The notes beneath the pieces are model-generated. The model did no database searches and was not told the origin of the DNA. It worked only from the letters and a program-made list of their open reading frames with translations. Position numbers and translations under genes: made by a program. Of a stretch of 64,000 nt of DNA, positions 5,625-10,414 are shown one piece after another; positions within the stretch are counted from its first letter, which is position 1; every line of letters begins with the position of its first letter. Source of the stretch: a virus (lineage: Duplodnaviria; Caudoviricetes). Location of the stretch: positions 51,840 through 115,839 of the IMG/VR virus record IMGVR_UViG_3300032219_002522, one strand, 5' to 3'.

Positions 5625-6476
5625 ATGCCAACAACAAGACCCTTTGCATATAATCCAACACAATCAACAATTTCAGGAACTACAAATGTAGGTACATTAT
5701 GCGTAGGTGTATCTGCTTTAAACTATGGTGCAAATCCAGGAGGACTAACTTGGTGGATGGGTCCGGACGAGGATAATTCTTATGTAATATCTAAAGATGT
5801 ACCAACTTCAAACTTTCCTACCCCAGTAGGAAATGTAGGCACTGTACAATTTTGGAGATGCTCTAATACAGATGAAGCTTTTAGAAGTACAGTACAAATA
5901 ATAAGCGGTATCACTCAAGCTTCCGCTTTAGCAGCTAGTGATTGGTTAACAACAAATGGATATTGGACTAATCGGAATCCATATCTTGCAGGTTTATATA
6001 AAACAACTTACTCCGGATATTTTGCTGATAATGTTAGTTTCTTTGCAACTGCTACTCCTGCATCAGTAGGGGGAAATCCAGCTACATCAGTACAAACAAC
6101 ATCTATATTTGAACCCGCTCAAAATGATGGCGAGAATTTTAGTTGTCAATGGCTAGGTTATTTTAAACCAACAACTTCTGAAACATATACATTCTACACT
6201 TCAAGTGACGACGCTTCGTATGTGTGGATAGGTTCAAATGCACAGACAGGGTTTACAACTACAAATTCAACAGTTAATAACGGGGGATTACATGGGACAC
6301 AAGAACGTTCAGGTTCTATTGCATTAACTGCTGGTACATATTATCAAATAAGAATACAATTTGGTGAACTAAGTGGAGGTGACGTAATGACTTTTAGTTA
6401 TTCAACCCCTACTATTACAAAAACTACCAATGTAACAGGACTAGTATTTTATAATCCGTCCACTAATGGATTCTAA
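5625..6476 (+). CDS. PA14-domain carbohydrate-binding protein (possible virion adhesin)
   Basis: FSCQWLGYFKP...YTFYTSSDDASYVWI...GTYYQIRIQFGE, a PA14/GLEYA signature. Confidence 0.8.
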   Translation: MPTTRPFAYNPTQSTISGTTNVGTLCVGVSALNYGANPGGLTWWMGPDEDNSYVISKDVPTSNFPTPVGNVGTVQFWRCSNTDEAFRSTVQIISGITQASALAASDWLTTNGYWTNRNPYLAGLYKTTYSGYFADNVSFFATATPASVGGNPATSVQTTSIFEPAQNDGENFSCQWLGYFKPTTSETYTFYTSSDDASYVWIGSNAQTGFTTTNSTVNNGGLHGTQERSGSIALTAGTYYQIRIQFGELSGGDVMTFSYSTPTITKTTNVTGLVFYNPSTNGF

Positions 6477-6511
6477 TTCAATAATTAGATATATACAATA
6501 AAATCAAAGAA

Positions 6512-6790
6512 ATGAAGCATATTAAAAATTATCAGGCTAAAAATTCTAAAATTAACGAGGGATTTTGGGATTCTCTTTTTGGTAGACCCACTGTTGATGA
6601 TGCTGCTCACGATCAAATGAGAGGTCAAGGATGGAGTCACAGAGGTAAAGATGAAGAAAACTACATCATGTTCCAAGGGCAAAAGTTCTATCCCGATCAA
6701 ATCCAATATGATGATGTTTATTCAACTAAACAAATACCAAGAGTTGAAGGGGGTATGTTAATCGTAGCTAATCCAGCTTGGAATTTGTAA
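6512..6790 (+). CDS. Hypothetical protein (MKHIKNY...INEG N-terminus)
   Basis: ORF track; GATATATA at 6488-6495. Confidence 0.7.
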   Translation: MKHIKNYQAKNSKINEGFWDSLFGRPTVDDAAHDQMRGQGWSHRGKDEENYIMFQGQKFYPDQIQYDDVYSTKQIPRVEGGMLIVANPAWNL

Positions 6791-6862
6791 AAAAAATCAG
6801 AAATCTTTTTTTTCTTATTATTTTGATCTCTATATTTGGATCCTAATTAAAAAACTTTTACA

Positions 6863-7240
6863 ATGAAATTAAACAAAATGAGCAGGGTTACTATGAAGGT
6901 AGCTCACGAGAATCCAGATGCTAGCGTGAACTTCACAGCGGTAGGGATAGGAAAAGATCAAAGAGAAGCAGCTATCTTCGCATTAGGATCCTTCTTAAAT
7001 GTTATGAATGGTATTAGTGAGGAAGGAATTTCGGATTACAATGAAGCTTTAGAAATGGTAAATGGTCAATATTCGGAAGCTGAAATAGTATCGTTTATGG
7101 AAAAACAATTAGAAAGCAATTCAGGTTCTTTCTTTAATGCTTACGAATCTACTGATGTTGATTATTCATGGGATGAAGTAGAAGGTGAAGAAGCTGGAGG
7201 ATTAATCCAAGAAATGGAAATAATCGAAGAGGAATATTAA
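6863..7240 (+). CDS. Acidic hypothetical protein, probably early
   Basis: ORF track; TATATTTG host-type promoter at 6831-6838. Confidence 0.7.
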   Translation: MKLNKMSRVTMKVAHENPDASVNFTAVGIGKDQREAAIFALGSFLNVMNGISEEGISDYNEALEMVNGQYSEAEIVSFMEKQLESNSGSFFNAYESTDVDYSWDEVEGEEAGGLIQEMEIIEEEY

Positions 7241-7281
7241 AAAATATCAAAGAAACATTTTTTTATTCAATAAAAAGATTG

Positions 7282-7317
7282 TACATTTGTGAAACAATAT
7301 CAGAAAAGAGATATATA
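7282..7317 (+). promoter_or_regulatory. Dual promoter of tRNA cluster 2: TAnnTTTG (7282-7289) and GATATATA (7310-7317)
   Basis: TACATTTGTGAAACAA...GATATATA, parallel to 1600-1635. Confidence 0.65.
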
Positions 7318-7328
7318 AACAAGAAACA

Positions 7329-7436
7329 ATGAAAAACTGTAGTAAACATAACATCATTCGCATGAACAGTCAGATTAATGGCTGCTATCAAACGGTGGCG
7401 TTTTGGGCTAAGGGAAAAGATCCCGATCGAAGCTAA
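7329..7436 (+). CDS. Leader peptide 2 of putative tRNA-cluster attenuator (MKNCSKHNIIRMNSQINGCYQTVAFWAKGKDPDRS, 35 aa)
   Basis: ATG 7329 to TAA 7436; contains codons for all 7 downstream tRNAs; starts MKN like leader 1. Confidence 0.75.
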   Translation: MKNCSKHNIIRMNSQINGCYQTVAFWAKGKDPDRS

Positions 7437-7497
7437 TACAAGAAATCATATTTAGATATTTTGAAAAGGCTTTGATTAACTTCAAAGCCTTTTTTTT
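7425..7497 (+). terminator. Attenuator 2: intrinsic terminator (7464-7497) with alternative antiterminator (7425-7434/7468-7477)
   Basis: AAAAGGCTTTGA-TTAACT-TCAAAGCCTTTTTTTT; GATCGAAGCT pairs with GGCTTTGATT (3 G-U pairs). Confidence 0.75.
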
Positions 7498-7513
7498 GTT
7501 CTTTGACATATTG
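7498..7513 (+). promoter_or_regulatory. boxA-like antitermination element
   Basis: GTTCTTTGACATATTG between the terminator and the first tRNA. Confidence 0.6.
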
Positions 7514-7519
7514 GAAATT

Positions 7520-7601
7520 GGGAGCGGTAGCAAAGTTGGTCAATGCACCGGACTGAAAATCCGGCCATGTGGGTTCGAAGGTTCGAGTCCTTCTACTTCC
7601 A
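7520..7601 (+). tRNA. tRNA-Phe(GAA), atypical (extended variable region)
   Basis: CCGGA-CT GAA AA-TCCGG; GAAGG-TTCGAGT-CCTTC; 12-nt variable region. Confidence 0.8.
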
Positions 7602-7606
7602 CAAAA

Positions 7607-7679
7607 GGTCCCGTAGTTCAATGGATTAGAATGGAACACTACGGATGTTCTGATCCTGGTTCGAATCCAGGCGGGGTCT
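7607..7679 (+). tRNA. tRNA-Arg(ACG)
   Basis: GAACA-CT ACG GA-TGTTC; CCTGG-TTCGAAT-CCAGG. Confidence 0.9.
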
Positions 7680-7690
7680 CAAACAAATAA

Positions 7691-7764
7691 GGTCGCGTGG
7701 CCGAGTGGTTAGGCGCTAGTCTGCAAAACTAGTAACACTGGTTCAATTCCAGTCACGACCTCCA
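7691..7764 (+). tRNA. tRNA-Cys(GCA)
   Basis: CTAGT-CT GCA AA-ACTAG; U73 discriminator and encoded CCA. Confidence 0.92.
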
Positions 7765-7785
7765 AAAAATAAAATAATAAAGCCT

Positions 7786-7917
7786 ATGGATGAAAAAGTG
7801 GTAGTAAAAGGAAGTTTCCCCTCTAGTAAAGAAAACTTAAAAAGAGAAACATTAAAATTTAAACACGCCGAAAGATTAATAAAAAGAATTAAAAGGCTAA
7901 TTAACAAAGGAAAGTAA
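7786..7917 (+). CDS. Small basic 43-aa ORF inside tRNA cluster 2 (MDEKVVVKGSFPSSKENLKRETLKFKHAERLIKRIKRLINKGK)
   Basis: ATG in an A-rich context; fills the whole spacer; stop overlaps the tRNA-Ser 5' end. Confidence 0.5.
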   Translation: MDEKVVVKGSFPSSKENLKRETLKFKHAERLIKRIKRLINKGK

Positions 7918-7994
7918 TCTCAGATGGTGACGGGGCTCGCCTGCTAAGCGAAGCGTACCTTAATTGGTATTTGGTTCGATTCCAATTCTTTCCG
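7909..7994 (+). tRNA. tRNA-Ser(GCT)
   Basis: GGAAAG/CTTTCC acceptor, TCGC-CT GCT AA-GCGA, long variable arm, G73. Confidence 0.82.
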
Positions 7995-8000
7995 CAATAT

Positions 8001-8074
8001 TGACATATAGCTCAGTTGGTTAGAGCGTTGATCTGATACGTCAAAGGCCGAAGGTTCGAATCCTTCTATGTCAC
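8001..8074 (+). tRNA. tRNA-Ile(GAT)
   Basis: TGACATA/TATGTCA acceptor, TTGAT-CT GAT AC-GTCAA. Confidence 0.9.
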
Positions 8075-8079
8075 CCCAC

Positions 8080-8152
8080 GCCTTTGTAGCTCAGCTGGTA
8101 GAGCGCTTCACTTGTAATGAAGTTGTCGCAGGTTCGATTCCTGTCAAAGGCT
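8080..8152 (+). tRNA. tRNA-Thr(TGT)
   Basis: GCCTTTG/CAAAGGC acceptor, CTTCA-CT TGT AA-TGAAG. Confidence 0.92.
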
Positions 8153-8157
8153 CATAT

Positions 8158-8230
8158 TTTCCCCTCGTCTAATTGGCGGGACATGTGGTTTTGGACCAGA
8201 AGAGTCCAGGTTCGAATCCTTGGAGGAAAA
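8158..8230 (+). tRNA. tRNA-Gln(TTG)
   Basis: TT TTG GA loop and GGTTCGAATCC; several stem mismatches. Confidence 0.75.
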
Positions 8231-8272
8231 CAAAAAGATAAATACAATGTCCAGTATGTAAAATTTAAGATT

Positions 8273-8764
8273 ATGAAAGTTCTAGTATTAAATAACGACT
8301 TTACGCCAGTGAGTGTTACCAATATAGCTCGGGGATTCAAACTTGTATATAAAGGTAAAGCCGAAGTATTAGAACATGACGAATCTAATCCTATTGTTAC
8401 AGATCAACAAGTTTATAAAAGACCATCAGTTATAAGGCTTTTAAAGTATGTTGTTCTTCCATTTAAGAAGCTAAAACCCACTAGGGAGAACATATTTAAG
8501 AGAGACGAATTAAAGTGCTTATATTGTGATGCTACAAAGCAGCTTACAATAGATCACGTAATCCCTAGATCTAGAGGAGGTATTAATACATGGGAGAATC
8601 TAGCAACTTGCTGTTCTAGATGCAACGGTAAGAAAGGAGATAGAACTCCAGAAGAAGCAGGAATGAAGATGCGTCACAAACCATTTAAACCTGGATATGG
8701 ATATTTTATCCGGAATTTTTCTAAAGGAATGGATGTTTGGACATCATATCTTCCAGAATATTAA
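8273..8764 (+). CDS. HNH endonuclease (McrA-like)
   Basis: VLVLN...CLYC...TIDHVIPRSRGG...WENLATCCSRCNGKKG; start moved to ATG 8273 because the track start (8117) lies inside tRNAs. Confidence 0.9.
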   Translation: MKVLVLNNDFTPVSVTNIARGFKLVYKGKAEVLEHDESNPIVTDQQVYKRPSVIRLLKYVVLPFKKLKPTRENIFKRDELKCLYCDATKQLTIDHVIPRSRGGINTWENLATCCSRCNGKKGDRTPEEAGMKMRHKPFKPGYGYFIRNFSKGMDVWTSYLPEY

Positions 8765-8767
8765 TAT

Positions 8768-10414
8768 CTATAGAAGAACTCTTTCAGCATATTCCATAAC
8801 TGCAGGATGTGTGTCTACTAAATGTTTAACAAGTGCAATAGTATTAGGATCCTCAGAATTTTGTGTTTGTTCTAGGAAAGATCCTAACATTTCCACTCCA
8901 TCTTTTGTTAGACCTAATATATTTATAACATCGTTTTTGTCGTATTTATTGTCGCTAAGTTCTTTAAATAGATCAATATCCTCTAAGCTGAAGAATCCTC
9001 CATTCTTCTCAGAGTTAAATGCCTTAACAATTTCATTATATGTTATGGAATTGTCTTTTTTAATTATAGATACTATAATGTTTTTAAAAGCGTCCATCTC
9101 TTCTTTGGAATATTCTCCCTCTTCTATAGATCTTTGAACTCCTAAACTTCCTAGAGCATGTATTAAAGCTATATTATTTTTACCTGTTTTTTGTTCTATC
9201 GATTGAATAATTTTTTTGATTATCAATTCACTTTCAAAATTTTTAGCTATAGATTCCTCTATTTCAGGAGAATAGATTCCGTATTTTTTCATGAAATCTA
9301 CATAATTTTGATTACCGCTTGAAACGCTACTGTTGCTTCTGTTAGCAGAACTAGTAATTCTTCCGCTAGGATCTATAGTAAGAGATGTTAGGAATTTATT
9401 ATCAGTCTTAGGAAGATCTAATAGATTTATAGATATTTGTAGTCTTCCAGTTGTATAGGTCCAGAATGTTGAATCAGTTCTTATACAATATGGTGCATTT
9501 GATACTTTACAAACCGCTCTCATACCTTCCGCTGATCTAGCAGATGTTACCACTATCTTTTTAGCAATATTATAGTATAGTATTTTTATTGATGGAGATA
9601 TAGACTTTAAAAGCTCTATAAATTCACCTATTCCTGATCCCCACCCAGATACTTTATCTTCGCAGTCCCTAACAAAATCTTTAAATGCCACGTAAGTATC
9701 TGCAAATTCAGGATAAGTCCTTGTGTCTTTATATTTACTTCCATAATTAATTAGCTGCTCCTCTGCGGTTTCCTCTATATTAGTTTCAGGATCTACAATA
9801 GGCTTTAATTTTTTTATGTCGGTTACTGCGTGATATAGTCTATCTAAAAGTTCAGCCCTTTCAGGATCAGTATTTTTTAGTTTAAGAGATTCTGCAAATT
9901 CTCTTCTTATTGGTCCTACGAAATTATCTATAAATTCCTTTATAGGCTTTTGTGCTTCTACATTCTCTAGATCATCCCATAGTTTTTCATAAGCTCTTTC
10001 ACCCTGTGGTGTTCTTTTTATATAATTATCAATGTTACCAAAAGGAAGAGGAAACGTAGAAAGCATCGGAGACATTTGCTCATATTTTCTATAAAGGTTC
10101 TCTACTGAAAAAGAATTAGGATCGTTATCTCCATTGGACATTGGTAATTTCTCTACTATACGAAAATACGTAAAAGGATACACCAAACCTGGTTTTTTAA
10201 CTTTATTTAAAAAGTAATCTCTTACTTCTATGTAATCTGGATTGCTTAATATTTTTTTCTCTTCCTCTGGAGTAAATTCTATCTTCTCCATAGGATCTAA
10301 TTTAAGCCTCCTTTTTTTATCGTCTGCTGCTAATTTTAATAAAAGAGCCTTAGCGGGAGCCACATTTTCATTGATTGGATAAAATTGGTCGAATGATTTT
10401 AAATTTCTATTCAT
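8768..10414 (-). CDS. Hypothetical protein, paralogue A (putative virion-internal)
   Basis: 548 aa; shares FTPEEEKKILSNPDY, VKKPGLVYPFTYF and CKVSNA blocks with 10427..12094. Confidence 0.85.
   Translation of the reverse strand: MNRNLKSFDQFYPINENVAPAKALLLKLAADDKKRRLKLDPMEKIEFTPEEEKKILSNPDYIEVRDYFLNKVKKPGLVYPFTYFRIVEKLPMSNGDNDPNSFSVENLYRKYEQMSPMLSTFPLPFGNIDNYIKRTPQGERAYEKLWDDLENVEAQKPIKEFIDNFVGPIRREFAESLKLKNTDPERAELLDRLYHAVTDIKKLKPIVDPETNIEETAEEQLINYGSKYKDTRTYPEFADTYVAFKDFVRDCEDKVSGWGSGIGEFIELLKSISPSIKILYYNIAKKIVVTSARSAEGMRAVCKVSNAPYCIRTDSTFWTYTTGRLQISINLLDLPKTDNKFLTSLTIDPSGRITSSANRSNSSVSSGNQNYVDFMKKYGIYSPEIEESIAKNFESELIIKKIIQSIEQKTGKNNIALIHALGSLGVQRSIEEGEYSKEEMDAFKNIIVSIIKKDNSITYNEIVKAFNSEKNGGFFSLEDIDLFKELSDNKYDKNDVINILGLTKDGVEMLGSFLEQTQNSEDPNTIALVKHLVDTHPAVMEYAERVLL

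Follow-up and report, generated by a model that had tools for sequence, protein, structure and literature searches.

Organisation of the second tRNA operon

The stretch of DNA analysed here, referred to below as the window, makes up the final 64 kb of an IMG/VR virus record of 115.8 kb that carries a completeness rating of 42%. ARAGORN located two tRNA arrays in it, both on the + strand (1804-2462 and 7520-8231), and each is headed by the same type of cassette, in which a promoter word, an A-rich leader, a short open reading frame (ORF), a terminator and a boxA-like word follow one another. In both cassettes the ORF begins with Met-Lys-Asn, and the tRNAs start 5-11 nt past the boxA-like word. 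The features of the second cassette and its array are as follows:

7282..7289, +, Bacteroidota-type -7 promoter box TAnnTTTG, assigned from the 16-base promoter word and the consensus in PMC9723704
7294..7328, +, A-rich 5' leader without a Shine-Dalgarno (SD) sequence, with a conserved GATATAT word common to cassette 1
7329..7436, +, leader ORF, 35 sense codons and TAA
7400..7406, +, segment 1, a possible anti-antiterminator, which pairs with 7427-7433 in the full-length fold
7412..7424, +, small G/C hairpin in codons 28-32; its codons (Asp/Glu, Pro) are outside the codon set of the array
7425..7434, +, segment 2, 5' strand of the putative antiterminator, spanning the final three sense codons and the T of the stop codon
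7439..7463, +, inner hairpin inside the predicted antiterminator helix
7463..7499, +, intrinsic terminator (hairpin 7463-7494) with a 13-pair stem, a 6-nt loop and a T-run; its 5' arm, 7468-7477, is segment 3
7497..7512, +, boxA-like box, adjoining the 3' side of the terminator, 8 nt upstream of the first tRNA
7520..7602, +, first tRNA, anticodon GAA (Phe), aberrant, 83 nt, Rfam 50 bits
7607-7680, +, tRNA-Arg(ACG), ARAGORN and Rfam
7691-7764, +, tRNA-Cys(GCA), ARAGORN and Rfam
7909..7996, +, probable tRNA-Ser(GCU), from a weak Rfam match (38 bits) and a homologue in relatives
8001..8231, +, tRNA-Ile(GAU), tRNA-Thr(UGU) and tRNA-Gln(UUG), ARAGORN

TAnnTTTG is the -7 box recognised by Bacteroidota sigma-A, with the consensus and placement (-12 to -5) given in PMC9723704. 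The exact 16-base promoter word occurs only twice in the 115.8-kb record, at 1600 and 7282, that is, once per tRNA array of the window, and the transcript of cassette 2 would be expected to start near 7294. A scan for sigma-70-type promoters was uninformative (43 sites against 50 expected). With regard to translation, PMC6847099 describes Bacteroidota mRNAs as lacking an SD sequence. From the terminator to the first tRNA no TAnnTTTG box was found, and this gap is only 25 nt long (in class B, described below, about 10 nt after the T-run). A separate promoter for the tRNAs past the terminator was considered and rejected, as there is neither a TAnnTTTG box nor space for one.

The counterpart of the boxA-like box in cassette 1 lies at 1778-1793, likewise directly 3' of the terminator. 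The box is present in all related cassettes, its exact word occurs in the window only at 1778 and 7500, and the box pattern has five matches on the two strands of the 115.8-kb record, three of which lie directly before a tRNA array or after a promoter heading untranslated sequence. We take this box to resemble the boxA of rrn operons. A third boxA-like word is situated at G000:C1:47304, 4.5 kb upstream of the window start. It immediately follows a TAnnTTTG promoter, from which neither a leader ORF nor a terminator separates it, and the stretch downstream carries no tRNA call.

Codon content of the leader ORF

The initial annotation described a 35-residue leader sampling 18 types of amino acid, and the ORF at 7329-7436 bears this out. 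Such breadth is only mildly unusual, as judged by the 4.6% of 35-codon windows in the genes of the phage that reach 18 (P = 0.046). Leu and Glu had been singled out as the two missing residues. Both are indeed lacking from the leader in the window (P = 0.013). For Glu, however, this is peculiar to the window phage and not conserved, as GAA occupies codon 31 in 13 of the 14 distinct relatives.

The number of amino acids is weak evidence by itself. Under strict wobble, the anticodons of the seven downstream tRNAs (Phe-GAA, Arg-ACG, Cys-GCA, Ser-GCU, Ile-GAU, Thr-UGU and Gln-UUG) account for 14 of the 35 codons, in agreement with the number first reported. The expected share, derived from 90 long ORFs of the same phage, is 0.17 (binomial P = 1e-3), and 0.07% of real 35-codon windows reach the observed count; the presence of all seven families in the leader has a chance probability of 1.9e-3. 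When the leader was compared with the 16-tRNA array carried by relatives (see below), 30 of the 35 codons found a cognate tRNA under strict wobble, where a share of 0.50 would be expected (P = 9e-6), and relaxed wobble raised the number to 32. None of the 25,810 real 35-codon windows from the phage genes reaches 30 codons for this tRNA set, the maximum being 27. All 16 anticodon families are represented by leader codons (P = 5.9e-6), whereas real windows cover at most 14, and the one to four codons per tRNA species are spread along the entire ORF.

The choice among synonymous codons goes against the usage of the phage. All three Ile codons are ATY, though ATA makes up 57% of Ile codons in the phage; both Arg codons are CGN, though 90% of Arg codons in the phage are AGR (CGN 9%); and all three Ser codons are AGY, though TCN accounts for 75% (AGY 25%). 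The codons that leader 2 shuns are those served by other arrays of this phage group. Five leader codons fall outside the full array under strict wobble, and three of these (Asp, Pro and Asp, codons 31-33) are unread even with relaxed wobble; they sit in the small hairpin and the antiterminator strand, where RNA pairing probably constrains the sequence. An overlapping 25-codon ORF starting at 7378 in another frame was also considered. It is open in all class A loci, yet changes at third positions of the leader frame alter residues in this one, and it was rejected as the frame under selection.

Relatives of the cassette and the full-length array

Relatives were found by DNA-pattern scans of IMG/VR and JGI metagenomes, using either the promoter word or the box together with the start of tRNA-Phe; L074 and several unclassed metagenome loci are truncated or rearranged and were left out. 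No related cultured phage was found in GenBank: BLASTN of 6400-8800 against 50,697 GenBank phage records gave tRNA-to-tRNA matches only, and TBLASTN of the 539-residue neighbour protein gave no match. The same leader, terminator and boxA-like box, which we call class A, were present at 22 loci, namely the window and 21 others from uncultured phages, mostly in lake metagenomes. These represent 14 distinct sequences that are 90% identical on average, and conservation within the class is therefore weak evidence.

The leader ORF is intact in the 22 class A loci, and its variable sites are distributed as 1/2/6 over codon positions 1/2/3. The variation consists of five synonymous third-position changes, a replacement of Asn by Ser(AGC) at codon 13, Asp/Glu at codon 31, one in-frame codon loss and one stop two codons early. 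Ile and Asn are also swapped between codons 10 and 13, a coordinated change that may preserve composition or may be compensatory within a 3-bp hairpin. In L078 (4561-4790) a Cys codon has dropped out of the leader in frame, and a piece of the T-run/box region is duplicated after the terminator. On the minus strand of L027, about 150 nt before tRNA-Phe, the promoter word is followed by a short hairpin, the boxA-like word and tRNA-Phe, with no terminator; judged by its sequence, this is an unattenuated variant of the operon head.

The arrays behind the class A leader are in many cases much larger than that of the window. In full length the order is Phe Lys Trp Arg Cys Ser Ile Val Asn Tyr Gly Ala Met His Thr Gln. 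ARAGORN called 15 tRNAs in ten relatives (L013, L017, L020, L023, L024, L037, L041, L052, L063 and L078), and 16, with Ser-GCU included, in L054 and L064. As a test of whether the leader records ancestral content, tRNAs for His, Tyr, Trp, Gly, Val and Ala had been predicted in relatives; all six are found behind class A leaders, together with Lys, Asn and Met, and the leader contains codons readable by each of these nine tRNAs (Lys, Trp, Val, Asn, Tyr, Gly, Ala, Met and His). The suggestion that the leader records a larger ancestral tRNA array is thus upheld, as the arrays of 15-16 tRNAs match its codons.

Alignment with the closest relative, L052, shows that two segments are missing from the window. 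One, comprising the 3' part of Phe together with the whole of Lys and Trp, is missing at the first tRNA of the window; the other contains Val, Asn, Tyr, Gly, Ala, Met and His, with a junction near 8070-8080 at the 3' end of the Ile gene, in a short identity (8065-8085) that the Ile and His genes of relatives share at their 3' ends. The window phage has lost nine of the 16 tRNA genes by two deletions between tRNA genes while keeping the leader. The second junction could stem from recombination between tRNAs, but both deletions may also be artefacts of assembly, in which similar tRNA genes collapsed. Incomplete arrays with the leader unchanged also occur in L061 and L082 (eight tRNAs each) and in L053 (13). 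Since such arrays recur, the losses appear to be repeated and recent, and the large array ancestral.

Some parts of the eroded array deserve comment in their own right. The first tRNA (7520-7602) has two tandem T-arm-like motifs and an acceptor stem that pairs poorly, and it occupies the place of Phe-Lys-Trp in relatives; it may be a non-functional recombination product. ARAGORN makes no Ser-GCU call at 7909-7996 in the window; this segment is about 84% identical to the ARAGORN tRNA-Ser(GCU) of L042, L054 and L064 and has the same anticodon loop. Between tRNA-Cys and this Ser-GCU-like tRNA lies a 43-codon ORF (7786-7917) in a stretch that is conserved in L052 and may be either a gene or a structured spacer. 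Directly after the array, the ORF at 8274-8764 contains an HNH-nuclease-like Cys/His motif; in L052 about 780 extra bases separate the array from the homologous region. In array 1 of the window, the spacers 1969-2134 and 2463-2570 are unannotated. The second of these ends in a T-arm-like motif and an acceptor-like end and could be a degenerate or unusual tRNA.

Leaders and arrays change together

Five further leader classes have the layout in common with class A and differ from it in sequence:

Cassette 1
Middle-array cassette, before a Glu-Asp-Met-Leu(UAG) array in relatives (L012 6440-6660, L013 5400-5620, L018 3490-3720)
Class B, 31 loci
Class C, L044 and L067
Class B2, L025 3928-4032

In each of the six classes (cassette 1, middle, A, B, C and B2) every tRNA of the array (100%) has one or more cognate codons in the leader that precedes it, and the true leader-array pairing is the only one of 720 permutations that gives full coverage in all six. 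The shifts in codon content can be followed class by class. The leader of the middle-array cassette, which is absent together with its array from the 115.8-kb record of the window, is rich in Glu, Asp, Met and CTN Leu codons. In class B the leader has Ser TCN codons and the array Ser-UGA, and Glu and Asp are found in both leader and array. In class C, His, Val and Leu are missing from both, and Pro is present in both.

Class B is also informative with regard to the level at which selection acts. Its variable sites are distributed as 8/9/17 over codon positions 1/2/3, and single positions hold Ile/Ala/Val/Arg or Ala/Cys/Arg/Asp, with codons that are still within the set of the array. These changes indicate selection on which tRNA reads each codon and not on the peptide. 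Taken together, the coverage of arrays by leader codons and the change of leaders with their arrays indicate that each leader is an index of its array. Leader 2 looks broad because the full operon of relatives has 16 tRNAs.

In the cassette 1 homologues of L003, L012, L013 and L016, a one-base deletion makes the leader end five codons early. In these four loci the stop codon coincides with the beginning of the antiterminator strand instead of following it, and the nucleotides downstream are conserved.

Terminator, antiterminator and RNA folds

The terminator hairpin has a predicted energy of -14.3 kcal/mol, and one compensatory change of a U-A to a C-G pair is seen in its stem in 4 of the 14 class A sequences. 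As first proposed, the last codons of the leader can pair with the terminator arm: 7425-7434 and 7468-7477 form 10 bp, three of them G-U. This segment is the single best partner of the terminator 5' arm across the leader (-12.2 kcal/mol), and 1.4% of dinucleotide shuffles do as well (P = 0.014). The antiterminator is weaker than that of cassette 1 (-12.2 versus -15.6), as had been noted; against an attenuator, it is also weaker, with its three G-U pairs, than the terminator with which it would compete (-14.3 kcal/mol).

When the RNA was folded to 7480, that is, with the 3' arm of the terminator yet to come, the minimum free energy (MFE) structure contained the antiterminator helix around the inner hairpin. 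In the full-length fold the terminator is formed, and 7427-7433 is paired with 7400-7406 (segment 1); segment 1 is invariant among relatives and hence offers no covariation evidence. The leader region as a whole folds better than its shuffles (z = -4.2). An Rfam search of 7297-7500 returned no family at E up to 1, T-box and amino-acid leaders included, and cassette 1 gave a sub-threshold match to Thr_leader only (28 bits versus a gathering score of 55).

Among relatives the antiterminator is pairable in all 140 cells over the 14 class A sequences, with two one-sided changes and no double compensatory change. In 3 of 18 class B sequences, one C-G/U-A pair that joins the leader strand to the terminator arm has changed in a compensatory manner, through a synonymous Ser codon; this probably stems from a single event. 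Four cassette types were tested, and in each of them the terminator 5' arm finds its best partner over the last codons of the ORF.

A proposed mechanism of attenuation

We propose that 7282-7512 is a ribosome-mediated (leader-peptide) transcription attenuator which gates the second tRNA operon, and that its leader is the codon index of a 16-tRNA operon; we put the probability of this reading at about 0.7. Comparison supports the layout of the attenuator described initially, as ORF, terminator and alternative pairing are kept in relatives, and it supports the leader as a record of ancestral content, but the broad sensor of translational health that was also envisaged did not stand (see below). 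Leader-peptide attenuation has been reported for flavobacterial amino-acid operons (PMC9723704).

According to this proposal, transcription would start at the Bacteroidota-type promoter near 7294, and the 35-codon leader would be translated as the polymerase advances. A fast ribosome that has arrived at the stop codon would cover 7425-7434 and leave 7468-7477 free, so that the terminator forms and transcription ends at the T-run. If the ribosome is delayed at any leader codon, 7425-7434 would instead pair with 7468-7477 and block the terminator. The escaped polymerase would then pass the boxA-like box and transcribe the tRNAs; by analogy with rrn boxA, the box may make it processive over the untranslated array, in a Nus-type role. 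Read-through that depends on stalling, and through it a feedback on tRNA supply, are what we infer from this arrangement.

The geometry of the leader suggests a timer. The stop codon lies 27 nt upstream of the terminator stem, so that a terminating ribosome would mask the antiterminator strand and not the terminator. As the sensor codons are spread along the whole ORF, and early stalls would be far from segment 1, the classic trp geometry is not applicable here and a timer fits better: the antiterminator would form by default, and termination would need a ribosome at the stop codon in time. The default antiterminator is a requirement suggested solely by MFE prediction. In the window phage, about half of the sensor codons would now report on tRNAs that the phage no longer supplies.

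Other explanations of the locus

That the leader is an ordinary small gene is, in our judgement, unlikely. The ORF would then encode a functional 35-residue peptide, the tRNAs would be reached by leaky read-through or from an unrecognised phage-specific promoter, and the codon match would result from co-expression with the tRNAs. The strong terminator, the nearly invariant class A peptide and the conserved core of the class B peptide agree with such a gene, but class B residues change radically while codon-set membership is kept, and classes A, B, C and B2 differ in peptide and yet agree in layout and in full array coverage. Neither the antiterminator that overlies the last codons in every class tested nor the lack of a TAnnTTTG box ahead of the tRNAs, with a gap of about 10 nt in class B, would be expected of it. 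The general translation-health sensor of the initial annotation, in which any slowdown opens the tRNA operon and the match to its tRNAs is incidental, appears more doubtful still. It draws on the 18 of 20 amino acids in the leader, and on the fact that 16 of the 35 codons are read by tRNAs not encoded by the window phage, so that in practice the leader of this phage reports on tRNAs supplied by the host. Breadth alone, however, is barely unusual (P = 0.046), and the leader amino acids beyond those of the seven tRNAs of the window are, Asp and Pro excepted, exactly those of the nine extra tRNA genes of relatives. A general sensor would have no reason to shun Leu, Ile-ATA, Arg-AGR and Ser-TCN, the commonest codons of the phage and those of other arrays (the leader has no Leu, and only ATY, AGY and CGN codons for Ile, Ser and Arg), nor would its codon set be expected to change along with the array, as it does in the divergent leaders.

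A switch that works through RNA only, in which the leader RNA acts as the receptor for a tRNA, a protein or a small molecule in the manner of a T-box or riboswitch and the ORF is incidental, seems highly improbable. It could explain why the region folds better than shuffles (z = -4.2) and why parts of cassette 1 are conserved as nucleotides across a change of frame. The Rfam search of 7297-7500, however, gave no match at E up to 1, T-box included, the sequence is not conserved between classes as expected of a structured aptamer, and third-position variation, the in-frame codon deletion and the conservation of codon sets all point to translation. The reverse logic of pyrBI, where a closely following ribosome blocks the terminator, would have good translation turn the tRNAs on. 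The order of leader ORF and terminator is as in pyrBI, but the ORF ends 27 nt before the stem, and a ribosome at the stop codon would cover the competing strand and not the hairpin; we give this logic hardly any credence.

Implications for the control of phage tRNA genes

Phage tRNA genes are usually regarded as cargo expressed constitutively, either to correct codon bias or to make up for tRNAs destroyed in infection. To our knowledge, next to nothing is established about how their expression is controlled, and a full-text literature search of incomplete coverage found no published case of leader-peptide control of tRNA genes. A leader with one codon per tRNA would make tRNA supply self-regulating. 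It would detect the loss of any single tRNA species, which bears on defence systems that cleave tRNAs, and it would extend the logic of attenuation from runs of codons for a single amino acid to a 16-input OR gate at isoacceptor resolution. The leader would also predict the ancestral content of an eroded array and could be used to trace the history of tRNA gene loss in metagenomic phages.

On a wider scale, we consider it slightly better than an even bet that an uncultured clade of Bacteroidota phages puts every tRNA array behind an attenuator of its own, indexed by codons, and transcribes the array only when at least one of the supplied tRNAs runs short. If this is true, the shortage could arise from a mismatch in codon usage, from decay of host tRNAs or from host anticodon nucleases, and the sensor of the window phage has outlived nine of its 16 tRNA genes. 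Such an arrangement would be without precedent, both as a tRNA-supply homeostat that makes use of a classical attenuator and as a case of tRNA genes under leader-peptide control.

Comparison with known systems

The closest parallels are the leader-peptide attenuators of amino-acid operons in enterobacteria (trp, his, leu, thr, ilvGMEDA and pheA). In these attenuators, as in the present cassette, a short ORF is translated ahead of an intrinsic terminator, the end of that ORF supplies the 5' strand of a competing antiterminator helix, and their regulatory codons are likewise cognate to what the operon supplies. They differ in that the regulated genes encode enzymes, whereas here they encode tRNAs, and in that a run of codons for one or a few amino acids is replaced here by codons for 16 tRNA species, with the choice made at the level of isoacceptors (ATY versus ATA, AGY versus TCN, CGN versus AGR). 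Moreover, the predicted default of a ribosome-free leader is read-through in the present case and not super-attenuation.

The synthetase genes pheST of Escherichia coli are preceded by the pheM leader attenuator, which contains Phe codons only. There, as proposed here, the rate at which a ribosome reads cognate leader codons governs a gene of the translation machinery, but in the present operon the products are the tRNAs themselves, which would close a direct feedback loop. T-box riboswitches also read the status of tRNA through a choice between terminator and antiterminator before translation-related genes. They bind the uncharged tRNA directly, have no ORF, respond to one tRNA and occur mainly in Firmicutes, whereas here a ribosome would read 16 tRNAs. 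Finally, boxA/Nus antitermination of rrn operons resembles the present system, presumably, in that a boxA-like word heads an untranslated structural-RNA operon in every cassette. Here, in contrast to rrn, the word lies downstream of a conditional terminator and would act only on polymerases that have passed the attenuator.
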